From: a virus
DNA length: 40,036 nt
Virus record (IMG/VR): IMGVR_UViG_2524614585_000001
Span: 1-40,036 of that record
Strand: one strand, 5' to 3'
Part shown: one piece after another, positions 1 through 40,036 of the stretch
How the letters are laid out: every line of letters starts with the position of its first letter
How positions within the stretch are numbered: position 1 is the first letter of the stretch
The notes under the pieces: model-generated
The model's database searches: none
What the model was told of the DNA's origin: nothing
What the model saw: the letters and a program-made list of their open reading frames with translations, nothing else
Translations under genes and position numbers: made by a program

Positions 1-95
1 CCTTTAAGGGGTCAGAAAGGGGTCAAACGGGGGTCAAGACAAAAAGAAAAGGCTCAACCACTAGGGTTAAGCCTTGTTTAGCGGAGATGGAGAGA
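1..95. repeat. Terminal direct repeat, copy 1
   Basis: Compared base by base: identical to 39942..40036 and runs to the window edge. Confidence 0.97.
8..36 (+). promoter_or_regulatory. Three GGGGTCA direct repeats in 11-bp phase (8, 19, 30); fourth copy GGGGTCAGAA at 211..220. Candidate integrase arm-type sites.
   Basis: Read directly; located just 3' of int in the circular map. Confidence 0.45.
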
Positions 96-153
96 ATCTC
101 AAATCTCGTTTTTCCTTAATTTCTATATAAATATTATCCAGTTAAATCAAGGG

Positions 154-179
154 GTTACATTATCCTGTTAATGTGTAAC
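154..179. promoter_or_regulatory. Imperfect inverted repeat GTTACATTA-N6-TAATGTGTAAC, candidate attP core
   Basis: Lies between the GGGGTCA repeat sets; AT-rich surroundings. Confidence 0.3.
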
Positions 180-260
180 AAACATAATTTATAAATATTT
201 TATCAGATATGGGGTCAGAAAATGCTATAATTGAGTCAAAGTTATCGTGAAAGGATTAAC

Positions 261-437
261 ATGAAAATCATATACTTTTTAGAAAATTATCGATTTAATC
301 CGTTGCTGAAAGAAAACGTCCAATGTACTCAATGTAATCATAAGTATAGCACGAAAATACGTCAAAGAGATTTACAGACGGATATCCGTTGCGAAAATTG
401 CATGCGAGTGTTTACCCACTTCAAATATCTGTTTTAA
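261..437 (+). CDS. Small zinc-ribbon-like protein (58 aa, CxxC...CxxC)
   Basis: ATG at 261 preceded by GAAAGGA; CTQC and CENC pairs; terminator follows. Confidence 0.55.
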   Translation: MKIIYFLENYRFNPLLKENVQCTQCNHKYSTKIRQRDLQTDIRCENCMRVFTHFKYLF

Positions 438-439
438 AA

Positions 440-477
440 CCGCCCACTACTTATTATAGTAGAAAGGCGGATTTTTT
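440..477 (+). terminator. Rho-independent terminator
   Basis: CCGCC...GGCGG stem with inner CTACT/AGTAG stem, then TTTTTT. Confidence 0.75.
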
Positions 478-530
478 GTGCGCTATTTTGCAGAATAGAT
501 AACACCATGTTAAGCACTGATTTAATTTTA

Positions 531-562
531 GAATAATAAAAGGACGGCTTTCCACACCGTCC
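531..562 (-). terminator. Rho-independent terminator (minus strand)
   Basis: GGACGG-N9-CCGTCC followed by TTTTATTATT on the minus strand, about 95 nt after the YolD-like stop. Confidence 0.5.
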
Positions 563-656
563 AGTTTGAAGCTACAATATAACATCACAATTAGTTCTCT
601 CGTCTCATTAATACCGGAGAACTGCACGTCTATATTATACCATGTTTAGTCTTAAT

Positions 657-1043
657 TTATGAATATAGGTAGTCTAGATCACTCATATAATCATACTCAT
701 CCACACTATAAATATGTTCAAATTGAACAAACATAAAACTATCCTCTTTACGCACAGTAACCACCCCGCTCCAGTCATCCATGCTCTCGATGATACATTC
801 TACCTGGTACTCGTAACCATCGTGCCAGTACCGCAGTATGACGTTTTTAGAAATGAGTTCACGCAGCTTCAATTCTAGCTCCTGCTGCAGTTCATCAGTC
901 AGATTAGGCTTAGGCACATATGCTTGCTCTACTTTCAATCTGTCCACATTCTCGTATTGCTCAGGCATCGTGGCAAATGGCGCCCACTTAATCATGCCTC
1001 TGCCTTGTGGAATATTGATATCAGCTAGTTTAGATACGTTCAT
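657..1043 (-). CDS. YolD-like protein
   Basis: IPQGRGMIKWAPFATMPEQYE is the signature block of the YolD-like family; RBS AGAGGTGA. Confidence 0.8.
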   Translation of the reverse strand: MNVSKLADINIPQGRGMIKWAPFATMPEQYENVDRLKVEQAYVPKPNLTDELQQELELKLRELISKNVILRYWHDGYEYQVECIIESMDDWSGVVTVRKEDSFMFVQFEHIYSVDEYDYMSDLDYLYS

Positions 1044-1062
1044 GGAATCACCTCTTAGGGTT

Positions 1063-1083
1063 ATTATAGCGAACGTATGTTCT
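1063..1083 (-). promoter_or_regulatory. LexA (Cheo) box AGAACATACGTTCG abutting a TATAAT -10 for the YolD-like gene
   Basis: Minus strand reads AGAACATACGTTCG-C-TATAAT, then 19 nt (including the RBS), then ATG. Fits CGAAC-N4-GTTCG. Confidence 0.65.
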
Positions 1084-1117
1084 GTATGTAAAGATAAAAA
1101 TAATCCCCTGACAAGGC

Positions 1118-1399
1118 TTATTGTTCAAAATCTAAAAATGGTTTACGTTCCAAATATTCTTGGATGATACTAACATTTTCACCATCTAATGTTGTGACAG
1201 GTAGACTCGGATAATTTTTATCTCTATAAGCCTTACTTAAATCTAATTCTAAAGGCTCCAATTCTTTTACCAATTCTTCTTTATCTTGAAACAGTTTATC
1301 CTTTACTAACAAAGGTTTTATTCTGTCTTGATCCTTAGAATATTTTACTCTTACGAGAACTTTAACAGGTTTACTAAAATTTAAATCATTTATGTTCAT
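1118..1399 (-). CDS. Hypothetical protein C (93 aa), third gene of the AT-rich operon
   Basis: ATG at 1399 with AAGGAGAG RBS; the longer ORF-track start overlaps the upstream gene and lacks an RBS. Confidence 0.6.
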   Translation of the reverse strand: MNINDLNFSKPVKVLVRVKYSKDQDRIKPLLVKDKLFQDKEELVKELEPLELDLSKAYRDKNYPSLPVTTLDGENVSIIQEYLERKPFLDFEQ

Positions 1400-1410
1400 T
1401 ACTACTCTCC

Positions 1411-1698
1411 TTAAATTATATTGAAAATAACAGTTATGAACCCTATAACAACTGCCACTAACGTCGTGGTAGCGAGACCCACACCCCATTTTAATGTAGA
1501 TTTTGTTTCTGAGATGTTTTTATCAATTGCCCCAAGTCGTTCATCGATTCTTTTCTCGTATTGTTTAAATGTTTCCTGCGACACATATGACATGCCGCCA
1601 CCACCTCCATTATTATTCCCTTTTTTATTGTCGCCTTCATACTTCACTTCATTAATATTGAATACTTCAGGGAATATTATTTTCGCAGAATTACTCAT
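1411..1698 (-). CDS. Tail-anchored coiled-coil membrane protein B (XhlA-like architecture)
   Basis: Gly/Asn linker, coiled-coil stretch, single C-terminal TM (GVGLATTTLVAVVIGFITVIF); RBS AAGGGGGA. Confidence 0.6.
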   Translation of the reverse strand: MSNSAKIIFPEVFNINEVKYEGDNKKGNNNGGGGGMSYVSQETFKQYEKRIDERLGAIDKNISETKSTLKWGVGLATTTLVAVVIGFITVIFNII

Positions 1699-2080
1699 TA
1701 TTATCCCCCTTTAAGCGAACTTTAAAAAATACTTCTTGTGAACTCTCTCCATCTATAATTAACTTTGCATAATGTATACCTTCATTATAGAACATAAAAT
1801 CTTGCACAATTATTTCATTAGTGAAAATATCGAAAGGTGTATTATAATAAAAATCTAAAATCGAGTGAGTACTTATTAACACTTGACCTTCAACTTCACC
1901 AATTTCCATTTCTACTTTATAACTATCAGTCTTTGTCAACTCTATTAGAGAGAAAGTCAACATAAAAGAAACTTTTTCATTTAGGGAAGTTAAACCAAAG
2001 CTGCTAATAGGTTTTTTTATAATTAATTCGTTACCACCTGTGTTTTCTTCAGATAATATAAGCCACGCAACTCTTGCCAT
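1691..2080 (-). CDS. Hypothetical protein A (129 aa), first gene of the AT-rich operon
   Basis: Only long ORF here; its stop overlaps the start of B by 8 nt (ATGAGTAA); weak RBS. Confidence 0.5.
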   Translation of the reverse strand: MARVAWLILSEENTGGNELIIKKPISSFGLTSLNEKVSFMLTFSLIELTKTDSYKVEMEIGEVEGQVLISTHSILDFYYNTPFDIFTNEIIVQDFMFYNEGIHYAKLIIDGESSQEVFFKVRLKGDNNE

Positions 2081-2172
2081 TTAATTATACCCGCTTTCAG
2101 ATTCATTTATCTAAACATTAGCAAACTATCTGAAAACTAAATAGACGGAACATGTATTCTGTTGTTAAAAAG

Positions 2173-2195
2173 TATTGCGATATTGCAATGCAATG
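2173..2195. promoter_or_regulatory. Operator-like cluster ATTGCGAT-ATTGCAAT-GCAAT in a divergent intergenic region
   Basis: Overlapping palindromic ATTGCAAT units between divergent genes A (-) and D (+). Confidence 0.35.
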
Positions 2196-2265
2196 TATGG
2201 ACTATTAAAAATATATGTAGTCAGATATGATTAAAGAGAATAAAAGAATAGGGGGGGACAAATAA

Positions 2266-2547
2266 ATGAATAGAATTCTTGTACAAAGCAAAACTAAAGA
2301 TAAAGGCTATCAAACAATTTCTAATAATGAGCGTGGCAGTAATGCAGAATTGGCTTTCAAAACTTATAAAGGATATCTGATTAAGTATAAGGATGAAATT
2401 TTAGAGGACGTTCCAGAGAGTGGAGAATATATTATGATTTCTTTTATTGGTGGCGATAAATATACAGACCATGAAATGAAAATTAAGGATATACCTAGTA
2501 CGATAATGATACCTATTAAGTACAGAGATAAATTCACTAGAGATTAA
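2266..2547 (+). CDS. Hypothetical protein D (93 aa)
   Basis: Strong RBS AGGGGGGGA 7 nt before the ATG; terminator follows. Confidence 0.6.
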   Translation: MNRILVQSKTKDKGYQTISNNERGSNAELAFKTYKGYLIKYKDEILEDVPESGEYIMISFIGGDKYTDHEMKIKDIPSTIMIPIKYRDKFTRD

Positions 2548-2554
2548 AAAAAGC

Positions 2555-2588
2555 ACCCCTCTTTCGGCAATGACTCCGATTGAGGGGT
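2555..2588. terminator. Bidirectional terminator between convergent gene D and the endolysin
   Basis: ACCCCTC-N20-GAGGGGT; T-run on the minus strand, weaker T-run on the plus strand. Confidence 0.6.
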
Positions 2589-2675
2589 ATCTTTATAGTT
2601 GAATTATTTAATTTTATTATGGTTGTTCACGCCATATACGTGTCTGTAATTTTCGCGAGTGCTTAATAATGTGTT

Positions 2676-3545
2676 TTATAGCAACTGATTAACTCGTCTC
2701 TGGACTGCATTAGCATCGTACCCTGCTTTTCTAAGTGCATTAAATCGTGCGTTACCATTTCCCCACTTGCCAGCGATCACTTCGCGCGCAACAGTATCAA
2801 TGGACTTTTTAGCTGGCTTAGAAGGACTTGCGCCTAACTTCTTATTAACAGCATTCTGAATTGTTGTAGGGTTATATCCCGCTTTTCTCAAAGCGTTAAA
2901 TCGAGCATTTCCAGTACCCCACTTACCTGCAATGACTTCATTAACAATAGTTGCCGTTGACTTCTTGCTACTTGTAGGTTTATTAGCCGGTTTAGGCTTA
3001 GCTGCAGGCTTCTTAGCCGGTTTGCTAGTATTACTATTCAAAGCGTTTAAATGCTCCTGTACACGGTTTCTGAACGCTTGATAAGTACCTGTAGCGTGCA
3101 TTTTGTGCGGGCAGTCTTTACCACTCCAGTCGTAGTGCCTTTTCAGTCTATCCATTCCCCAACCGTACTGTTTAAGCACATAAGCGATATATAGTGCCGC
3201 GTTTTCCTCTGCTGCTTTATACCTGGTTGATTTAGCGCCTGAATATCCATTATCCATTGAGTAACAGATTTCAATGCCGATTGATCGCATATTACCATTA
3301 CCCATACCATCACCTGCGTGCCAGGCTGTGCGATTAAACGGAATAAGTTGAACAGCTTCTTTATCGTCAATAGCTACATGATAGCTCACTTGCGCATTGT
3401 TACTGTTATGGTACGCTGCTTCGTTACGCGCTGATGCCGTATTCCCTGTATTGTGGACAGTAATATATAACGGATTCATTGCGTATGGTGCTTTAATGCC
3501 GTACTTACTTGTGGGCAACATATTATTTACAATCTTATAAGCCAT
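2676..3545 (-). CDS. Endolysin: N-acetylmuramoyl-L-alanine amidase (Amidase_2/PGRP) plus two CW_7 (Cpl-7-type) repeats
   Basis: HVAIDD...AWHAGDG...SIGIEICY amidase motifs; two copies of VIAGKWGxGNARFNALRKAGY...VQxxVN. Confidence 0.85.
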   Translation of the reverse strand: MAYKIVNNMLPTSKYGIKAPYAMNPLYITVHNTGNTASARNEAAYHNSNNAQVSYHVAIDDKEAVQLIPFNRTAWHAGDGMGNGNMRSIGIEICYSMDNGYSGAKSTRYKAAEENAALYIAYVLKQYGWGMDRLKRHYDWSGKDCPHKMHATGTYQAFRNRVQEHLNALNSNTSKPAKKPAAKPKPANKPTSSKKSTATIVNEVIAGKWGTGNARFNALRKAGYNPTTIQNAVNKKLGASPSKPAKKSIDTVAREVIAGKWGNGNARFNALRKAGYDANAVQRRVNQLL

Positions 3546-3703
3546 TATTTGACCTCCTCGTCGGGCTTGAAACCTTCGAATTTTGTTTCATCTGCTTTTT
3601 CTGGGTTATCCACGGGTTTTATATCTTCGCCGACACCACCGAATTTTTGATTTCGAGTAAATACATCATCACGTTCTTTTTCTGCTTGAGTTTTCTCTGC
3701 CAT
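3545..3703 (-). CDS. Small acidic hydrophilic protein (52 aa) translationally coupled to the endolysin
   Basis: ATG at 3703 with AGGAGT RBS; its stop overlaps the endolysin ATG (TAATG). Confidence 0.55.
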   Translation of the reverse strand: MAEKTQAEKERDDVFTRNQKFGGVGEDIKPVDNPEKADETKFEGFKPDEEVK

Positions 3704-3726
3704 ACCTATCACTCCTATTTTTGATA

Positions 3727-3755
3727 TAAAAAAAGACACCTCGTGTGAGATGTCT
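3727..3755 (-). terminator. Hairpin plus T-run immediately after the holin
   Basis: Minus strand AGACATCT-cacacg-AGGTGTCT then TTTTTTT; includes the holin stop codon. Confidence 0.65.
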
Positions 3756-4005
3756 ACTTACGTGCTTTCTTGCGTTCCAATATTTCCTGCGCTTCTTCTG
3801 CTTCGGTCGTTAAGTTAGTGTTTCTATACGTTGAATACAGCGCTGATACGACTAACGCAACTGTGGACACAGCTTCATAAATCTGCTCGTCGCTGAACGG
3901 TAATGGATTGTACCCGAAGCTCACTAATGCTTGGTTAATCAGTAGTATGATTAGTACGATTAGGCGGGTAATACCCGCTGTTTTATTGTTCTTTGGATTC
4001 GCCAA
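3754..4005 (-). CDS. Holin (phi LC3-type, two TM segments)
   Basis: Two hydrophobic segments and a charged C-terminus; TTG at 4005 sits 6 nt after GGAGGTG. The ORF-track start at 4020 would swallow the RBS. Confidence 0.75.
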   Translation of the reverse strand: MANPKNNKTAGITRLIVLIILLINQALVSFGYNPLPFSDEQIYEAVSTVALVVSALYSTYRNTNLTTEAEEAQEILERKKARK

Positions 4006-4020
4006 ATAGTTCACCTCCAA

Positions 4021-4046
4021 TAAAAATAGAGGAGCTTTCGCCCCTC
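4021..4046 (-). terminator. Hairpin plus T-run upstream of the holin
   Basis: Minus strand GAGGGGC-gaaa-GCTCCTC then TATTTTTA. Confidence 0.5.
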
Positions 4047-4051
4047 ATGCG

Positions 4052-4126
4052 TTATTTACAAATACCCAACCAGAAGCACTGCCAGAAACTTGCGCCTAAA
4101 ATGATAAATTCGCTAGCTGTTTGCAT
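4052..4126 (-). CDS. Candidate 24-aa hydrophobic peptide (MQTASEFIILGASFWQCFWLGICK)
   Basis: ATG preceded by AAAGGTGGTGA; below the ORF-track size cutoff. Confidence 0.3.
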   Translation of the reverse strand: MQTASEFIILGASFWQCFWLGICK

Positions 4127-4145
4127 CGTTTGAACTCACCACCTT

Positions 4146-4547
4146 TCATATCCCTAGCCATGTTCGTATAAGAGCCACCAGTAGGGAAGTACCAAGTGTG
4201 CCGATGAGTCCGAGCATCCAATATTTCAGTTTTTTCATATCTTGCCTGTTCTCTTTTTTAGTTTCTTGGTCAAGTTCACGTTCCCTGTTTATACTGTCTA
4301 GCGTAAAATTCATTTTCTGATTAACTAACTCTTGCGAGTGTTGCCCTGTTTTAATATCATCCAAAGCATCAAAGATCTTACGTGTTTCTTCTTCTGATTT
4401 CTTTTCGTTTTCATCAATCTTTTTATGAAGTCGAGAAAAACGTTCTTCGTAATGTTCATCTTTTCTCTCTAATCGTGATAGTCTTTTTTCATGACTTTCT
4501 AATGATGCAGGCAAACGCTCACCCCTTTCTGCATAATAAAAACCCAC
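4146..4547 (-). CDS. Tail-anchored coiled-coil membrane protein (DUF2951/XhlA-like)
   Basis: Highly charged coiled coil plus a C-terminal TM (YWMLGLIGTLGTSLLVALI); start (GTG 4547 or internal TTG) uncertain. Confidence 0.6.
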   Translation of the reverse strand: MGFYYAERGERLPASLESHEKRLSRLERKDEHYEERFSRLHKKIDENEKKSEEETRKIFDALDDIKTGQHSQELVNQKMNFTLDSINRERELDQETKKENRQDMKKLKYWMLGLIGTLGTSLLVALIRTWLGI

Positions 4548-4549
4548 GG

Positions 4550-4861
4550 TTATTCCGAGGGCTGTTCTTCTACCGGTTTTTCTTCAGTCACAACGTCGCC
4601 ATTCTCGTCTAATCGAAAGGATTCCACATCGTGTTTCATTGCGTAGTATTCATACGCTTGACCTGTAAGGTTCGCCATCATATTGTGAACATCAACCAAC
4701 TGCTTAACTTCTTCAAATGTGCTGTACTTACTCGCTCCTTCAAAGTCATTCACCGCTGAGAATAGTCCGTTGTAGCTGTTAAATCTTAGCACCGAATGTT
4801 CTTCGCTTGAATTGTTATAGCGTGCGATATAGTAGTTAGTTTCTTTACCTGTTAATGTCAT
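4550..4861 (-). CDS. Hypothetical tail-module protein (103 aa)
   Basis: Tightly packed ORF after the tail genes. Confidence 0.55.
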   Translation of the reverse strand: MTLTGKETNYYIARYNNSSEEHSVLRFNSYNGLFSAVNDFEGASKYSTFEEVKQLVDVHNMMANLTGQAYEYYAMKHDVESFRLDENGDVVTEEKPVEEQPSE

Positions 4862-4863
4862 AA

Positions 4864-5109
4864 TTATTTCTCCTCCAGTTTCTGTTTTAATTCTGAAACC
4901 TCTTGTCTTAATTCGGAAACTTCACGTCTTAAATCGCCTTCTTTGAATAAATCTATTGCCCTTAAAGTTTCTATAAACGATGTTCTAGAAGCTAATTTTT
5001 GGATAAACTCATCTGATATTTTTATATCCGAAGCTTCTATAACACAAATGTCCAGAAACTTCTCTCTGCCATCTGAATCGGGGCGGACTATATTAAGTTT
5101 GTTTTCCAT
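4864..5109 (-). CDS. Hypothetical protein (81 aa, C-terminal coiled coil)
   Basis: Tightly packed ORF; REVSELRQEVSELKQKLE repeat. Confidence 0.55.
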   Translation of the reverse strand: MENKLNIVRPDSDGREKFLDICVIEASDIKISDEFIQKLASRTSFIETLRAIDLFKEGDLRREVSELRQEVSELKQKLEEK

Positions 5110-5607: not shown

Positions 5608-8600
5608 TAACCATTAATCCAGGCTCTCCCTGTTCTAATTTGCACAATGTTATTACTCGTGCCGCCAATGCGATAAAATTCGAGTTGTACCGCCAATCCC
5701 CCGTATGTTGGAGAACCTAAAGGAACGTTAATTTGAAATTCGTTTGAAGGATTATCTCGGAAAACGAGAATATCATCTTTAATCACATCTCTAATACTCG
5801 TACCAGACGGCTTATTGATGAACCGCACAACCACACCCATATACGTGGATGTTGAGGTTGAGTTAAAACGTAAGTTCGCACTGAAAGCAATAGATAAGTA
5901 CCGTCCAGCATGTTGTGTATAACCCATTTCAAATGTTTGTGTTCCAGCCATTGATGTGTTGTAGTTCCTCCCATCAAATGTGACTGTGCCATCGGTAGAC
6001 ATCCACGGTTTGAAGAACACGGGTATACCGAAGCTAGGTACACCATTCTGTACATACGGTACACCGTCCGGGCGCCATATCGTCAATTCGTGCAAGTCAA
6101 GCGTAACGGTGCTTAGTGTTGTTATGAATGCACTCTTAGCCATCATCCGCTCAAACATCGCTGTGGACGAGAATACTCTATCGAGCAACGCTGTGCCGGA
6201 TTTAATCCAATCAGCTTCTATTGTATTCACAGTGAGTAATCTCGAACGAATGTGCGAAGCGTTTAAGTCTACGACATTTAACGTTAATGCGTGCATTTCG
6301 TTGACGAAGTGCGTTTTAGTAATGAGTTCATCTATCCTCGCCGAAGTGGCAAACAACTTATCCACCAATGCCGTACCCACTTGAATATGGTCGGAAGTGA
6401 TAACGTTTGCTGTTAGTTGGTTTGCGAATAACCTTGCGAAGTTACCTTCGATAGCATCGACGGCTAATGATGTGATTTGACCTTTCGCATTCAAGTTGCC
6501 AGTTAAGTTGAAATTACTAACTACAGCATCCAGTGCATCAGGGCTACCTCGGAGTACACTACTTACATCTTCCGCGCCTATTCTCATAGCGCCCAATTGC
6601 CAATAGTCAGGAGTCAGTTTGAAGTCTGTTTGTTTGAGTGTTTTATCATCAACTTCTTGTACTTTGAATGAAATTTGATTTGCTAATTGCTCAACTTGGC
6701 TGACTGCATTGAGCATTGGTGTAGCTTCGCTCCCTCGTTCTAACTTGGCATATATACGACGGTTCGGATTAGTTAAACGAGCAAGACGAACTTCTGTGCC
6801 GTTGTAACTAATCGCACTTAATAATATGTGAGTGCTTGGCGTTGTGAAAGTATTAGTTTCTCCACGTCTTACAGTGATCTGATTACCATATGATGGCTCT
6901 CCTGTTGAATCTGTAAAGTTAATCAACCAGTAATCAATGTTACTATTATCTGGACTATCATCACTGAATGTGTAGGTGACACCACTTGACACCCATATCG
7001 CATTCTCACGTCTTATTCTGATATTACCGGGCAATATATTTCCATTACCTGTACTCCAATACCTCCCCACTTCCCAAGCTTCTTCGGCAATAGGTAGAAG
7101 GTTCGCCTCTATTTCAGACACGTCGTTTAACCATAGCTTACGCTCGTACGCATCTACGGTCTCAAGCACACTCTGCCCATTTGTTGCTTGCCAATCTTCC
7201 ACACGTTGTAAAATAAGTTCGTTGCCTTCGACTGTTTGTTCCACTGATTTTATATATTGATTCAACGTATCAGTTTCTGCATCATACAGGGACTTTGTGA
7301 CGAACTCGCTATAACCATCTTCCAGATTAGTAATCCGCCGAGTGACTTCTTCAATCGACTGCGTCGCATCTTGAGGATGATAGACCCAATCGGTATTGTT
7401 GCTGCCCGTTAAATAAACTAATTTAATATCAATACGTTCTCTCGTAACATCACCGGAAGCGAAGTTTGTACCGATTTGAAACTGACCTGAAACTGTTTCA
7501 CTCGGAATGACAGTTCCATAAGTCCGCCTCCATTTTCCATCGGTGTGTAAATCCGAGAGTGGTTTATCTATATCATCAATGAGATTGTAATAGCCGTCCA
7601 TATCTCCGATGGCCAGCCTATCCAACTCTTTAGCGCCATATGAACGATAATCTACAGCAACAATATATTTTTTCCCTTTTTCTAACGTCACGCCTTCCGT
7701 GAAATGCACACGCGGTTCATTAAATCTTTCGGAATATAGAGTAACAAATTTTATATTTCCTTCTTCCTGAAGTTCCGCGCCTGAATACAGATGAAACATA
7801 TCAGGTTCATCAAAGCGAGTCCCTCGGATCATATTGAAAGTGTTGGAATCGACCTTCCGAAGGCGCTCTTCAAAATTCTGTGATATATCTAAGAATCTTT
7901 GGTCTAATGTGATACTCCGAGATGTGCCGAGAAATTCATCAATATCCATTACGTTTTCTTTCAAGCCGTCAATCAACGTTTGGTGTCCGCTTGTGACCGT
8001 TTCTAAGTCTGTCCGTACTTCGTCCGCTTTTTCCTGCGCTTTCTGTTCTGCGTATTCTTTCGTCTGCGTGATTTCTGTATTTAGGTTATCCGTAAATTCT
8101 GTGCGAGTGCCTTCGATGAGATTTGTCATATTCTCACGGTCAGCTTCGATTTCTGCTTGTTGGTCGATTAAATTCTGCTCGAATTGATTCATTGCAGCAG
8201 TAAACTGGTTGTCTATCCAAGCGTTCCACTCATTTTTAATACGAGTGATTCTGTCGCTAGTGTCTCTTCCTAACCGCTTAATTTGAGCATTGATACGTTT
8301 CATCTGTCGATTCTCAAAGTGATGGAAGTCACCTAACGTGAGTTTGCTAAGCTCCGGATCAAGTAGATTATATTCAATCTTCTCAACACGAGCGCGCTTA
8401 ATAATGCCCGCGGCTTTATACAGAACACCGACTGTATCGCCAAGTTTAAGATTACCAATCCGTGCCACTTCTGTTTTCCACGTGGCTTTAGGCAGACAGT
8501 TTTCAAGTAGCCAGTAGTACGTTGCATCAGCTAATTTCTTTTTATCTTCAATATCCTCAAATACAACTTCCGGTGCAATTCGGGGTTTCACGACACCGTT

Positions 8601-37635: not shown

Positions 37636-38310
37636 ATGTCAGAAGAAGAACGTAAGCAACAGAAGAAACGGGGCGGTTGTCTCAAATGGGTATTAATCAT
37701 TTTCGGTGTACTCATTCTATTAGGCGCTTGTGGTGCGCTATTAGGTGGTGGGGATAACGCTACTAATACGACTCCAGAAGAAGCTACCAAAGAATCAGAA
37801 GAGCCTGCAGAAGAAGTGGAAACGGAAAGCGGCGAACAAGAAGAATCTGCAGAAGAAGATGAAGAGGTAGTTGAAGAGGATGAAGCTGTTGAAACAGTTG
37901 GCATCGGCGAAACATTAACTGTTGATGATATTGATTTTACTGTAAATGATATGTATCAACAAGATAGCGTAGGTGACGTTATAGCTTCAAATGCAAACGA
38001 TACTTATCTAATCTTAGATGTCTCCGTGACAAACAACCAAAATGAGGCAGTAACGCTCATGGATAGTTACTTCAAGATAGTCGATGGCGAAACAGTATTT
38101 GAACCAGACGGCACTGCATCAATGACAGCTAACCAAGCGATTAGCCCAGATAATTTAGGACTACTCGCAGAAGAAATAAATCCTGGATCTTCACGAGATG
38201 CATTAATTGTGTATGATATAACTCAAAGTGTCATAGACAGTCAAAGCAAGCAATTGCAAGTTCAGTCCGGAATGTTCGGTACTGAAACAGGAATCATAAA
38301 TCTACAATAA
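37636..38310 (+). CDS. DUF4352-like lipoprotein with an acidic linker
   Basis: Signal plus lipobox LLGAC, E-rich linker, beta-rich C-domain (TYLILDVSVTNNQNEAV). Confidence 0.7.
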   Translation: MSEEERKQQKKRGGCLKWVLIIFGVLILLGACGALLGGGDNATNTTPEEATKESEEPAEEVETESGEQEESAEEDEEVVEEDEAVETVGIGETLTVDDIDFTVNDMYQQDSVGDVIASNANDTYLILDVSVTNNQNEAVTLMDSYFKIVDGETVFEPDGTASMTANQAISPDNLGLLAEEINPGSSRDALIVYDITQSVIDSQSKQLQVQSGMFGTETGIINLQ

Positions 38311-38380: not shown

Positions 38381-38394
38381 CGAACATACGTTCT
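38381..38394 (+). promoter_or_regulatory. LexA (Cheo) box CGAACATACGTTCT
   Basis: Fits CGAAC-N4-GTTCG except the last base. The 12-nt core is identical to the box at 1071..1082 (reverse complement). Lies 20 nt before the ImmA-like ATG. Confidence 0.6.
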
Positions 38395-38413: not shown

Positions 38414-38863
38414 ATGAGAATTGAAGATAAAGTAAATGAAATCGTAGAATTATCAATATTAGATGTAATGGATTTATCAGTAGAACATCTCTCTTATATG
38501 TTCGATGTCCATATTTTATATAATCATCAATCTAACTTTTATGTTCAAAAAGCCGGTGTCGATATTATCGGTTTAAAATTTGATAAGCGACATGAGATGT
38601 TTAAAGCGTTCTGTCATGAAGCCGGTCATATGTTTTTACATGCGACCAATCAAAAGGCGATGCCGCAAACGTTTAACCAGCTGCAGGAAGCTGAAGCTGA
38701 GAAGTTCGCCCTACTCTTACAATTACCGGAGAATTTAATCATTAAGAATAAATGGTATGAACCAATCGATTTAATGAAGGAATTTAACGTATCTGAGGAG
38801 ATTGCGATTAAAAGATTACAGATGTTAAAGAGTCGCGCAGAAGTCTTGCAGCTGCAATTTTAG
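38414..38863 (+). CDS. ImmA/IrrE-family zinc metallopeptidase
   Basis: HEAGH (HEXXH) motif in a 149-aa protein within the repressor-integrase operon. Confidence 0.75.
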   Translation: MRIEDKVNEIVELSILDVMDLSVEHLSYMFDVHILYNHQSNFYVQKAGVDIIGLKFDKRHEMFKAFCHEAGHMFLHATNQKAMPQTFNQLQEAEAEKFALLLQLPENLIIKNKWYEPIDLMKEFNVSEEIAIKRLQMLKSRAEVLQLQF

Positions 38864-38874
38864 GAGGGAATACA

Positions 38875-39948
38875 ATGCCTGTATATGAAGCGAGTAATGG
38901 TACATGGTATGTGAAATTAAGTTATATCGATGAGTTCGGGGATAGAAAGTATAAGACAAAGCGGAATCTCCCGACACGGGGTAAAGCTAGAAAGTGGGAA
39001 GATGAGTTTTTCATCAAGCTGCAGGAAGGAGAATCGTCAGACTACCTATCATTTACAGTCCTGTCTGAACATTATATTGAGTGGTATTCCAAGCGGAGAA
39101 AACCATCCAGTATTAAGACGATAAAGAACTATGTCAATAATCATCTGGATCCGTACTTTAAGAAGATGAACGTCTACCGTATGAGTACGAAAGATATATT
39201 GAATTTTCACGACCACATGACAAATAAGATATTCAGAGATAAGCCGTTGAAGAAAGGTTATATCCAGGATGTACACACGGCGCTGAGCAGCATCTTAAAT
39301 CACGGGGTAAAATTCTATGATTTGAAGAAGAATGTTGCAGCACTGGCAGGGAATATCGAAAATGACGAGACACCGAGTTGGGATTACTGGACCTTGAATG
39401 AATTTGAATACTTCTATAATCAAGTTGACGACATTCTAATTAAGACATACTACCGCCTGCTCTTCTTTAGTGGACTGCGCCACGGAGAACTTCGCGCACT
39501 TACCTGGAATGATGTGAACCTAATTGATGGCTATGTCGATATTAACAAGACGAATTACAACGGCAAGGTGCATACACCAAAAACTAAAACATCTATCCGA
39601 AAAGTATATATCCCAAAACATGTGATTAATTTATTACATGAATATAAAATATGGTACCAAAGTGAAAAGGAATATAAAGATGATTATGTGGTGTTTGGTA
39701 ATTTCTATAAAGCATATGGGGAAAGTACAATACCGAAAAGGTACGATAAGATAATGGATGAAATAGATTTAAAAAGAATTAAGACACATGAGTTTCGACA
39801 TTCACATGCTTCTGATTGTATTAACCGGTTAAGGATGGATCGCGAAACTTTAGCAAAACGCTTAGGACATTCTTCATCAATTACAATCGAAAAAATATAT
39901 GGTCACTTGTATCCGAGCACAGAAAAAGATGCCATTTTAGACCTTTAA
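38875..39948 (+). CDS. int: Tyrosine integrase
   Basis: LRHGELRAL, HEFRHSHAS, LGHSS...YGHLY catalytic blocks. Confidence 0.9.
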   Translation: MPVYEASNGTWYVKLSYIDEFGDRKYKTKRNLPTRGKARKWEDEFFIKLQEGESSDYLSFTVLSEHYIEWYSKRRKPSSIKTIKNYVNNHLDPYFKKMNVYRMSTKDILNFHDHMTNKIFRDKPLKKGYIQDVHTALSSILNHGVKFYDLKKNVAALAGNIENDETPSWDYWTLNEFEYFYNQVDDILIKTYYRLLFFSGLRHGELRALTWNDVNLIDGYVDINKTNYNGKVHTPKTKTSIRKVYIPKHVINLLHEYKIWYQSEKEYKDDYVVFGNFYKAYGESTIPKRYDKIMDEIDLKRIKTHEFRHSHASDCINRLRMDRETLAKRLGHSSSITIEKIYGHLYPSTEKDAILDL

Positions 39949-40036
39949 GGGGTCAGAAAGGGGTCAAACGGGGGTCAAGACAAAAAGAAAAGGCTCAACC
40001 ACTAGGGTTAAGCCTTGTTTAGCGGAGATGGAGAGA
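39942..40036. repeat. Terminal direct repeat, copy 2 (starts 7 nt before the end of int)
   Basis: Identical to 1..95. Confidence 0.97.
39990..40016 (+). terminator. Hairpin after int (also present at 49..75)
   Basis: AAGGCTCAACC-actag-GGTTAAGCCTT (1 mismatch), weak T-tail. Confidence 0.45.

Follow-up and report, generated by a model that had tools for sequence, protein, structure and literature searches.

Background

In phage lambda the genes for RexA/RexB, a two-component abortive-infection system, lie downstream of the repressor gene and on its strand (cI-rexA-rexB). RexB is polytopic, with four transmembrane (TM) helices usually ascribed to it, against one terminal helix in the protein B described below. 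Mycobacteriophage Sbash gp30/gp31 is a two-component prophage abortive-infection system, and the lactococcal Sie2009 and the S. thermophilus Ltp are small membrane-associated superinfection-exclusion proteins of Gram-positive prophages, encoded between repressor and integrase.

PdpSau is a membrane-anchored abortive-infection (Abi) protein of S. aureus prophages, which is linked to holin and amidase genes and typically replaces the PVL genes (PMC10127798). XhlA and SPP1 gp24.1, each with a TM helix at the C-terminus, are lethal only in combination with an XhlB-type holin (PMC6316719). Lytic cassettes also encode XepA and YomS, both of them 4+4 beta-sandwiches (PMC6834076).

The locus described here is from a temperate phage of Jeotgalicoccus, in which an AT-rich accessory slot adjoins the lysis genes and is placed between the endolysin terminator and attP. 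The window, i.e. the whole stretch of DNA that was analysed, is 40,036 nucleotides long. An initial annotation had taken the four genes of the slot, A to D, to be one lysogen-expressed unit and a candidate for exclusion or defence.

Results

Composition and gene layout

The genes of the slot, and the gene that follows it, are:

Gene A: 1691..2080, minus strand; 129 aa, predicted cytosolic all-beta protein, a divergent member of DUF6941/phrog_5881 and first of the pair
Gene B: 1411..1698, minus strand; 95 aa, predicted tail-anchored membrane protein, overlapping A by 8 nt
Gene C: 1118..1399, minus strand; 93-aa ORFan preceded by a strong RBS; occupies the variable third slot after B, GC3 0.18
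Gene D: 2266..2547, plus strand; 93 aa, divergent from A and convergent on the endolysin
YolD-like gene: 657..1043, minus strand; PF08863, E 3.8e-14

The four open reading frames A, B, C and D (93-129 aa) are real, and the layout first described for them was borne out: the 8-nt overlap of A and B (ATGAGTAA), the start of C 11 nt past the stop of B, and the RBSs of the genes, that of C (AAGGAGAG) being strong. The expression of A and B is linked by translational coupling.

The region has 30.9% GC, which is the minimum of the contig (mean of equal-size windows 39.5%, sd 2.2%), and GC3 is 0.18-0.32 across the region as compared with 0.37-0.39 in the lysin and tail genes. The AT-richness given in the initial annotation is real, but its figures of 24-30% against 48% are replaced by about 31% against about 40%; the value of 48% is correct for the single 50-mer at 6001-6050 only and does not describe the background. 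That the slot beside attP is of the accessory (moron) type and has transcription signals of its own was supported, and so were the atypical composition and the exchangeable cargo, since L009 has another 3-gene cassette and L002 a 286-aa membrane protein. Megablast of positions 1-5000 against 50,697 phage records found no near-identical phage.

The grouping of A-B-C and D as one unit was not upheld. Only A-B is conserved; C and D are independent, variable neighbours, and the A-B-C trio is not kept in synteny across relatives. C has no homologue other than itself in 5.8 billion protein clusters and none in phages (tblastn), and the third slot differs: the third-slot ORFs of L002, L006 and L007 (56-57 aa) do not align with C, and in L008 a third ORF is absent. 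Tblastn searches of the phage records with B, C and D as queries gave nothing.

Gene D has four homologues with 81-97% identity and a dN/dS of 0.16-0.36. It adjoins the endolysin in L010, its homologue in L009 faces a different 3-gene cassette, and in L002 it is replaced by the 286-aa membrane protein. Judged from these sequences, D is kept with the endolysin and not with A-B. No family match was found for D in Pfam, PHROG, PADLOC or NCBIfam, and because its AF2 model is weak (pLDDT 66.5) and the best Foldseek match has E 0.16 and a TM-score below 0.31, Foldseek says nothing on this protein. C and D are separate cargo genes outside the A-B module. A and B make up the putative functional core, a prophage accessory cassette of two genes that is self-contained.

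Gene A and the DUF6941 family

It had been stated that the genes belong to no recognisable family. This does not hold for A, which matches phrog_5881 over its full length with E 9e-18, and holds only in part for B, with its sub-threshold XhlA match. Alone, A reaches 14.6 bits against the Pfam family DUF6941 (PF22091; cut-off 27). PF22091 is matched by 32 of 35 aligned members of the A family (best E 1.8e-17), and this together with the phrog_5881 match makes the membership of A in DUF6941 a transitive one. A profile built from A and its relatives retrieved 33 representative proteins with lengths of about 130 aa, and the DUF6941-family members here are single-domain, all-beta proteins of about 118-148 aa. 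Genome and viral collections scanned with the close A alignment gave no match. DUF6941 and phrog_5881 are not mentioned in the literature searched, and the family is uncharacterised.

The AF2 model of A (pLDDT 78.8) has 8 strands, one of them at residues 2-11, and A is predicted to be a small 8-strand Ig-like beta-sandwich. In the 35 sequences of the family every invariant or near-invariant column is non-polar, without any polar or charged residue; A therefore looks like a binder rather than an enzyme. The dN/dS of A is 0.08-0.24.

Foldseek gave only generic Ig-like sandwiches for A, with TM-scores of 0.5-0.63; the closest structural neighbours are uncharacterised phage proteins, for example one of Anoxybacillus phage A403 (TM 0.83). 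That the Foldseek matches are only generic Ig-like sandwiches is a point against exclusion. Lipid binding of the RhoGDI/PDE6-delta kind was considered and dropped, the matches sharing a generic Ig-like fold at a TM-score of about 0.5. Homology with XepA/YomS was also rejected, as there was no PDB match with phmmer or profile and neither protein was among the top 50 Foldseek matches in PDB/BFVD.

Gene B, the tail-anchored partner

B begins with a PKIIFPxEF-like peptide, followed by an Asn/Gly linker (NNNGGGGG) and a coiled coil with an EKRI[DE] motif. The hydrophobic segment 71-95, a predicted TM helix, forms the extreme C-terminus. The membrane component of the initial annotation is B, and the linker, coiled coil and single C-terminal TM helix read there were all recovered. 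With the single C-terminal helix as anchor, the coiled coil, the flexible linker and the N-terminal peptide, which is conserved, are predicted to be cytoplasmic.

Against XhlA (PF10779) B scores 25.5 bits (E 1.5e-5), at profile positions 23-67 only and below the gathering cut-off of 34.7. A match to XhlA at E<0.01 was obtained for only three of ten partner proteins. B also matches PHROG 'hemolysin' and 'holin' families. The phage carries an XhlB-type holin at 3754..4020 (PF04688), and just upstream of it lies the gene at 4146..4547 for a DUF2951 protein, which is a tail-anchored coiled-coil protein. The resemblance of B to this protein, noted earlier, is confined to gross architecture; homology was rejected at a hhalign probability of 9.9%.

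The A-B pair across relatives

The co-occurrence of the two genes was followed in the window, StB12, AP45 and the Logan, IMG/VR and GTDB loci. In every examined Bacillales-type DUF6941 locus with downstream sequence the next gene encodes a protein that combines a coiled coil with a TM helix at the C-terminus, and about 13 distinct tail-anchored partner proteins were found besides that of the window. The distance from the DUF6941 gene to the partner gene is -26 to +19 nt, with frequent overlap. Purifying selection acts on A, B and D (dN/dS mostly 0.1-0.3), and A-B diverges more rapidly than its neighbours D and YolD.

Many Bacillales prophages carry the pair beside the attachment site, and in the loci examined it is always beside attP. 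The pair follows the endolysin and shares its strand in StB12, L028-L034, L052 and L012, and is convergent on it in L015, L019 and L043. In L035 it is flanked by a CI repressor (HTH_3 + Peptidase_S24) on one side and a tyrosine integrase on the other, and shares their strand. In AP45 the order is CI, nuclease, pair, serine recombinase, and the pair is far from the lysis genes. L011 is a decayed prophage with IS elements and with the lysin split into fragments of 155 aa and 133 aa; here the pair is intact, and gene calling on the fetched stretch gave neither a holin nor a structural gene upstream. The position of the pair in the lysogeny module of some relatives and its persistence in a decayed prophage fit a host-protective function. 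The proximity to the endolysin in most loci and the xepA-xhlA order of PBSX fit a lysis role equally well, which counts against exclusion.

Clostridia variants consist of DUF6941, a PDC-M32A-like protein and a 127-aa protein with invariant Y-R, S and H-S-E residues. The third gene of these operons had no sequence match in Pfam, NCBIfam or PDB.

Searches for defence homologues

The defence role suggested initially is a reading of position and architecture, and no defence-system model was matched. In PADLOC 2.0 there was no match for A, B, C or D. The 35 members of the A family gave scattered chance-level matches only, and the partner proteins match ZorA coiled-coil regions only. No homology of the region to RexA/RexB, Sie or Abi families was found in Pfam, NCBIfam or PHROGs. 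The lack of a PADLOC match and of Rex/Sie/Abi homology, and the one TM helix in B, speak against exclusion.

Control signals and terminators

The following signals were located around the genes:

Bidirectional intrinsic terminator: 2556..2588, no strand assigned; between endolysin and D
Divergent control region: 2081..2265, no strand assigned; LexA-like box, inverted repeat and the RBSs of A and D
Near-consensus LexA (Cheo) box GAACATGTATTC: 2147-2158; one mismatch, 67-78 nt upstream of the start codon of A
Imperfect inverted repeat TTGCGATATTGCAA: 2175-2188; formed by ATTGCAAT and ATTGCGAT
YolD promoter TTTACA-18-TATAAT: 1063..1092, minus strand; promoter of the next gene downstream of C
Perfect LexA box GAACGTATGTTC: 1071-1082; in the spacer of the YolD promoter
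Intrinsic terminator after YolD: 542..562, minus strand; GGACGGTGTGGAAAGCCGTCC then a T-run, ending the minus-strand unit

The bidirectional terminator after D proposed at the outset is well founded, as the hairpin folds on both strands. On the minus strand it has a dG of -22.1 kcal/mol (z -4.8) and is followed by U7, which makes it the terminator of the endolysin transcript; when it is folded on the plus strand, after D, dG is -21.4 kcal/mol (z -3.5), and this site was also found in a consensus terminator scan. The terminator and the opposed gene D part A-B-C from the late operon. No terminator was found between C and YolD.

The box GAACATGTATTC is identical in L002-L007 and L010. In L012, where the A homologue is about 32% identical, GAATGAATGTTC is found at the same distance upstream of it, and in StB12 the left half-site is missing. 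The identity of the box among close relatives says little, because the entire 85 nt upstream of A are about 90% conserved among them. A functional box of S. aureus recA (CGAACAAATATTCG) has the same ATTC half-site as the box upstream of A, and S. aureus yolD is controlled by LexA (PMC11442139). Neither a scan nor inspection by eye gave a convincing -35/-10 pair around the box. A sigma-70 promoter for A was discarded, since the best scanned -10 element is placed implausibly, 4 nt before the start codon.

The overlapping palindromes that had been described in this region are reduced to one, as ATTGCAAT is palindromic and ATTGCGAT is not. The TTGCGATATTGCAA repeat is kept at the same place in the relatives L003-L006 and L010; one site of this type is the number expected by chance.

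YolD is a conserved downstream neighbour of A-B in Jeotgalicoccus and Staphylococcus-type loci (L002, L008, L011-L013), and its promoter/LexA element is kept in L002, L006 and L008. By the LexA criterion (GAAC-N4-GTTC over a promoter) the site at YolD is perfect, and that at A has one mismatch and a promoter not placed with confidence. On the evidence of its promoter, YolD, the next gene 3' of C, is probably SOS-type regulated. The conserved near-consensus box upstream of A suggests SOS control in place of the lysogen expression that had been assumed. Induction along with the prophage, as suggested by this box, is a further point against exclusion.

Discussion

The reading that we tentatively prefer is that A-B may be an exclusion or abortive-infection module of RexAB-like make-up, with a cytosolic binder and a membrane effector. 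A would do the binding or sensing and would be tethered to the membrane through the N-terminal peptide of B. B would be the membrane effector, resembling the tail-anchored XhlA/gp24.1 holin partners; superinfection or an SOS signal would lead it to impair the membrane or to stop an invading phage at a membrane step. We infer that A and B interact, as well as the time of their expression and the exclusion phenotype. The argument for exclusion is drawn from the co-occurrence of the pair and its attP-side position, which in L035 and AP45 is that of cI-rexA-rexB or sie genes; from the intact pair in the decayed L011 prophage and its transcription apart from the late operon; from a non-enzymatic A next to a holin-partner-like B, with PdpSau as a precedent; and from dN/dS values mostly of 0.1-0.3 with A-B diverging faster than the flanks.

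A wider reading, taken as a whole doubtful, is that DUF6941 with a tail-anchored partner constitutes an unrecognised, widespread exclusion/Abi family of Bacillota, in which A gates B and which has a sister in Clostridia. A would then restrain the holin-like B, e.g. by binding its N-terminal peptide, until a phage or SOS signal frees it. The freed B, together with a resident or incoming XhlB-type holin, would cause a premature membrane collapse. On this view the variants of Clostridia would share the sensor domain and represent a sister system.

It is rather unlikely that A-B instead sets the timing of the phage's own lysis, as a lysis accessory or holin-modulating pair like xepA-xhlA of PBSX, with B as a second XhlA-type partner or an antiholin for the SPP1/XhlB-type holin and A as a membrane-proximal tuner. 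A beta-sandwich gene followed by an XhlA-like gene mirrors xepA-xhlA (PMC6834076), the pair adjoins the endolysin in most loci, and B has its weak XhlA match (E 1.5e-5) and the 'hemolysin' and 'holin' PHROG matches; the phage also has the PF04688 holin of the XhlB type, with which alone XhlA-type proteins act (PMC6316719). However, B stays under the gathering cut-off of XhlA, a match is obtained for no more than 3 of 10 partner proteins, and A is without XepA/YomS similarity in the PDB sequence searches and the top 50 Foldseek matches. The genomic setting also argues against a lysis role: between the pair and the late operon stand a terminator and gene D, which runs the opposite way, transcription of the pair opposes that of the lysis genes in L015, L019 and L043, the pair accompanies repressor and integrase in L035 and AP45 (in the latter far from the lysis genes), and it is intact in the L011 remnant, where the lysin is broken and no holin was called. 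In addition a tail-anchored DUF2951 protein is already present upstream of the holin.

Two further explanations have a low probability, about the same for both. A-B, with or without C, may form a LexA-repressed unit with YolD, i.e. SOS damage-response cargo that is not active in the quiescent lysogen and that acts, for example, on the envelope, on cell division or in the exclusion of competitors while the prophage replicates. The perfect Cheo box in the spacer of the YolD promoter, kept in relatives, the identity of GAACATGTATTC in relatives with GAATGAATGTTC at the same distance in L012, the ATTC half-site shared with the S. aureus recA box and the LexA regulation of S. aureus yolD (PMC11442139) are in agreement with this, and no terminator was found between C and YolD. 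On the other hand, boxes with one mismatch are frequent by chance according to a rough estimate, the 85 nt upstream are about 90% conserved anyway and StB12 lacks the left half-site, no convincing -35/-10 pair surrounds the box, and in L035 and AP45 the pair is apparently co-transcribed with the repressor. SOS control is moreover a question of timing, compatible with the exclusion and lysis models alike. The other explanation is that the pair is a lysogenic-conversion factor outside phage conflict, in envelope or stress physiology, or selfish cargo without a phenotype. Its position resembles that of virulence and fitness morons of staphylococcal prophages (PMC10127798), no defence model is matched, and the pair is retained in a decayed prophage; but the soluble parts of A and B are predicted to be cytosolic without a signal peptide (from the sequences, and for A from the model strand at 2-11), A has no conserved catalytic residues, and a divergence of A-B faster than that of the flanks would be expected of conflict genes more than of others.

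Should the pair exclude phages, it would be a compact two-gene addition to the short list of Gram-positive prophage-encoded defences, with components that are absent from current defence catalogues. Exclusion would be the first function for DUF6941 and phrog_5881, and would link tail-anchored proteins of the holin-partner type to immunity and not to lysis. If the pair tunes lysis instead, the poorly understood XepA/XhlA class would be extended beyond Bacillus. The cargo hotspot mapped between the endolysin and YolD/attP in Staphylococcaceae phages can be mined for further systems.

Comparison with known systems

Like PdpSau, the A-B pair is accessory to Staphylococcaceae prophages (Sa2-type in the case of PdpSau) and linked to lytic genes. 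PdpSau is, however, a single protein of 278 aa that has a TM helix at the N-terminus and a domain resembling the OB fold, and neither its sequence nor its architecture is related to the pair. The place of the pair between repressor and integrase in L035 and AP45 is that of Sie2009/Ltp, which differ in being single proteins exposed on the outer face of the membrane, whereas A and B are two proteins predicted to be mostly cytosolic.

The likeness to XepA-XhlA of PBSX is found in gene order, with a beta-sandwich gene immediately before the gene for a coiled-coil protein that has a single TM helix at the C-terminus, and B is short like XhlA and shares its coiled coil and single C-terminal TM helix. 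As with XepA-XhlA and SPP1 gp24.1, the genes are beside the endolysin and the same phage carries an XhlB/SPP1-type holin. Unlike in PBSX and SPP1, A has no XepA/YomS match in sequence or fold and B is below the XhlA threshold; the pair also differs from XhlA in being a transcription unit of its own outside the late lysis cassette, and in belonging to the lysogeny module in some relatives.

RexA/RexB of lambda show no homology to A-B, and the pair in the window is at the lysis end, away from the repressor. The likeness is one of arrangement: a small cytosolic and a membrane protein, as predicted for A and B, are encoded by adjacent genes, and in L035 and AP45, though not in the window, the pair lies downstream of the CI repressor on the same strand.

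Genome and setting of the region

An exact 95-nt repeat is found at both ends of the window (1-95 = 39942-40036). The record thus represents the complete genome of a temperate phage, assembled as a circle of about 39.94 kb, and not an integrated prophage flanked by host DNA. An NCBI protein of Jeotgalicoccus psychrophilus (Staphylococcaceae) is 100% identical to protein A. The minus strand carries the late genes as far as the lysis cassette, and the lysogeny module is on the plus strand at 37.2-39.9 kb, with genes for an HTH_3 repressor, a DUF4352 protein, an ImmA/IrrE-like peptidase and a tyrosine integrase with an arm-binding domain. The layout of this module places attP between 39,949 and about 230, and the gene order confirms that the region is the end of the late arm.

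Features between the lysis cassette and attP
4146..4547: DUF2951 protein (phrog_276), tail-anchored coiled coil, upstream of the SPP1-type holin
3754..4020: SPP1/XhlB-type holin of the lysis cassette
3545-3739: 64-aa acidic ORF without family, between holin and endolysin
2676..3545, minus strand: endolysin (Amidase_2 and CW_7) of the lysis cassette
2266..2547, plus strand: D, 93 aa
1691..2080, minus strand: A, 129 aa
1411..1698, minus strand: B, 95 aa
1118..1399, minus strand: C, 93 aa
1092..1063: YolD promoter, TTTACA-18-TATAAT
657..1043, minus strand: YolD-like gene, between the A-B region and attP
231..437: zinc-ribbon ORF, between the A-B region and attP

Three copies of GGGGTCARR with 11-nt spacing lie directly 3' of the integrase stop codon (8-38 = 39949-39979) and a further copy at 211-219; including the duplicated end there are 7 matches against 0.46 expected. 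They are probably arm-type attP sites, since the integrase has an Arm-DNA-bind_4 domain. The 224-aa DUF4352 protein (37636-38310), encoded between the repressor and the ImmA-like gene, carries a hydrophobic stretch resembling a lipobox (LLGACG) at the N-terminal end, and an acidic linker. It is a further candidate for a surface or exclusion protein, within the lysogeny module.

Gene structure and composition

The four ORFs A-D are present as first described, with an 8-nt overlap of A and B (ATGAGTAA), an 11-nt gap with AAGGAGAG between B and C, and a G-rich ribosome binding site of its own for D. The bidirectional terminator at 2556-2588 was also confirmed, and is used by the endolysin on the minus strand and by D on the plus strand. 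Its hairpin has a dG of -22 kcal/mol (z -4.8, no shuffle equally stable), and the U7 directly 3' of it on the minus strand identifies it as the terminator of the endolysin transcript. The dN/dS values of A, B and D, mostly 0.1-0.3, indicate purifying selection and hence real genes. In the same locus pairs dS is at least 1 for A and B, compared with 0.04-0.45 for D and 0.44-1.1 for YolD. This greater divergence relative to the flanks suggests cassette exchange or a faster evolution of the pair.

The GC content of the region, 30.9%, is the minimum of the contig (mean 39.5%, sd 2.2%, windows of equal size), and GC3 is 0.18-0.32 compared with 0.37-0.39 in the lysin and tail genes. The AT-rich island of the initial annotation is therefore real, but the contrast of 24-30% with 48% was overstated because the latter value is true only for the single 50-mer sampled. 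As for the overlapping palindromes described between A and D, ATTGCAAT is palindromic whereas ATTGCGAT is not. Jointly they form the imperfect inverted repeat TTGCGATATTGCAA (2175-2188), a type expected once per window by chance, yet kept in the same place in close relatives.

Proteins A and B

None of the four proteins had been assigned to a family, which does not hold for A. The match of A to PHROG 5881 spans the whole protein (E 9e-18). A profile built from A and three relatives, 60-68% identical, retrieved 33 representative proteins, all of them single-domain and about 130 aa long. Pfam DUF6941 is matched by 32 of 35 aligned members of the family; A alone scores under the cut-off. By this transitive evidence A is a divergent member of DUF6941/phrog_5881, a family with no mention in the literature searched. 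The AF2 model of A is an eight-stranded beta-sandwich (pLDDT 78.8). Foldseek against the PDB gave only generic Ig-like sandwiches (TM 0.5-0.63), among them RhoGDI, PDE6-delta, the Wzt carbohydrate-binding domain and CARDB. The matches in BFVD were uncharacterised phage proteins, with one from Anoxybacillus phage A403 at TM 0.83. All invariant and near-invariant columns of the 35 members are non-polar, a pattern that points to a binding module more than to an enzyme.

B begins with a short PKIIFPxEF-like peptide, followed by an Asn/Gly-rich linker and a coiled coil that bears an EKRI[DE] motif; its sole hydrophobic segment, a helix, is at the extreme C-terminus. The single TM helix, linker and coiled coil reported earlier are thus all seen. 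B shares its gross architecture with the DUF2951 protein of the lysis region, as had been noted, but no homology is detectable (hhalign probability 9.9%). The XhlA score of B (25.5 bits) is below the threshold of 34.7, and XhlA matches are confined to its closest relatives, 3 of 10 partner proteins in all. The layout of B resembles that of XhlA, but its score does not qualify it for the family. Neither A nor B has a signal peptide, and the predicted location of A and of most of B is the cytosol.

The conserved unit

Comparison of loci from relatives indicates that the conserved unit is the A-B pair, and not A-B-C with D as originally proposed. In five related Logan contigs (L002, L003, L006-L008) A and B are followed by a variable small ORF or none, and then by YolD. 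In Staphylococcus phage StB12 the lysin is followed by an A homologue (28% identical) and a tail-anchored coiled-coil protein of 134 aa. The pairing is also found in a Staphylococcus-like chromosomal remnant (L011-L013), in a 4.2-Mb genome (L015), in Halalkalibacterium (L019), in Aeribacillus phage AP45 (L018) and in the IMG/VR prophages L027-L036, L042, L043 and L052. In distant relatives the two genes are spaced by -26 to +19 nt, and an 8-nt overlap like that of A and B is frequent; the partner is built like B, with linker, coiled coil and C-terminal TM. A tail-anchored partner is present at every Bacillales-type locus examined that has downstream sequence.

The position of C is taken by unrelated ORFs or nothing, and C has no homologue anywhere. 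D has four homologues (81-97% identical), no family match and a low-confidence model for which no similar structure was found. In L010 D converges on the lysin, in L002 its place is taken by a 286-aa membrane protein, and in L009 (133-1838) it faces an unrelated AT-rich three-gene cassette (163, 141 and 259 aa) that matches nothing in Pfam or PADLOC. The variable C slot, the replacement of D and the L009 cassette mark the interval from the endolysin terminator to YolD as an exchangeable cargo hotspot, with A-B as one cassette. On gene order D is linked to the endolysin and not to A-B, and neither C nor D should be counted as part of the system.

At all loci examined the pair is beside the attachment site. 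In the window, StB12, L012, L028-L034 and L052 it follows the endolysin on the same strand; in L015, L019 and L043 it is convergent on the endolysin; and in L035/L036 and AP45 it is inside the lysogeny module. The order in L035/L036, all on one strand, is CI-type repressor (HTH_3 and Peptidase_S24), DUF6941, partner and tyrosine integrase; that in AP45 is repressor, hypothetical protein, thermonuclease, pair and serine recombinase. L011 (3380-7962) is a decayed Staphylococcus-like prophage with IS elements upstream and a lysin split into a 155-aa Amidase_3 and a 133-aa SH3_5 ORF; no holin or structural genes were called in the upstream part of the fetched stretch. DUF6941, a 188-aa tail-anchored partner and YolD are intact, adjoined by host thermonuclease and glyoxalase genes. 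Taken with its varying orientation to the lysis genes and the terminator seen in the window, the attP-side positions of the pair favour an accessory cassette of its own over a component of the lysis operon.

Regulation

A perfect Gram-positive LexA (Cheo) box, GAACGTATGTTC, is located in the spacer of the YolD promoter (1071-1082), an arrangement kept in L002, L006 and L008. In S. aureus yolD is under LexA control through a very similar box (PMC11442139). Upstream of A, 67-78 nt from the start codon, GAACATGTATTC (2147-2158) differs from the LexA consensus by one base; its ATTC half-site is also part of the functional S. aureus recA box (PMC11442139). The sequence is unchanged in six related loci. 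L012 has GAATGAATGTTC at the same distance, with an A homologue only about 32% identical and diverged flanking sequence, and StB12 retains the right half alone. A convincing promoter was sought around GAACATGTATTC and none could be placed, so SOS control of A-B stands as a hypothesis only. If true, it would make the pair induced with the prophage, not expressed in the lysogen. A second perfect LexA box (38382-38393) lies just upstream of the ImmA/IrrE-like peptidase gene (38414..38863).

Possible functions of the pair

We tentatively regard A-B as a two-component membrane-acting exclusion or abortive-infection module, by analogy with the logic of lambda RexA/RexB. In this model A would be a small binding protein of the cytosol, and B would tether it to the membrane and act as the effector, resembling the tail-anchored XhlA/gp24.1 class. 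Proteins of that class are lethal only in company of an XhlB-type holin (PMC6316719), and such a holin is encoded by this phage and by many of its competitors. The proposal is supported by the repressor-linked position in two lineages, the retention of the pair in the decayed prophage L011, the separate transcription unit, the faster divergence than in flanking genes and the precedent of PdpSau, an Abi protein with a membrane anchor whose gene is linked to holin and amidase genes in S. aureus prophages (PMC10127798). The absence of PADLOC matches for A-D or the A family, and of homology to Rex, Sie and Abi families, counts against it.

The main alternative, a lysis-modulating pair analogous to PBSX xepA-xhlA, where a beta-sandwich gene precedes that of a tail-anchored holin partner (PMC6834076), would agree with the frequent closeness to the endolysin. 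It appears rather unlikely given the terminator between the endolysin and the region of the pair, the convergent and lysogeny-module locations, the survival of the pair in a remnant with no holin called, the sub-threshold XhlA score of B and the lack of XepA/YomS similarity of A in PDB sequence searches and Foldseek. A role in the SOS response has a low probability; this reading concerns timing and fits either functional model. Little probability is likewise given to a conversion role unrelated to conflict. The accessory, membrane-acting and possibly defensive system first suggested is plausible and now better grounded, with the pair as its unit.

Comparison with known systems

In a remoter clade from Clostridia (L020-L026, L037-L041 and L044-L049; Lachnospiraceae, Sporobacter and related IMG/VR contigs) DUF6941 is part of a different three-gene operon. 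The second protein, of about 160-204 aa and ending in ..VV.EFYG, weakly matches the PADLOC candidate PDC-M32A (E 1.4e-5), which hints that the DUF6941 domain may be used more broadly in conflict systems. The third, of about 127 aa, has invariant Y-R, S and H-S-E residues (checked in L020, L021 and L024-L026) and belongs to no known family. Directly before the operon of L022 and L026 lie EF-G/EF-Tu-like genes.

The A-B pair has no link by homology to characterised systems; as far as the tools show, it is an uncharacterised conserved module apparently not recognised before. In kind it is familiar, a prophage moron cassette flanking attP with a membrane component, and it is a concrete candidate that is cheap to test rather than a surprise.
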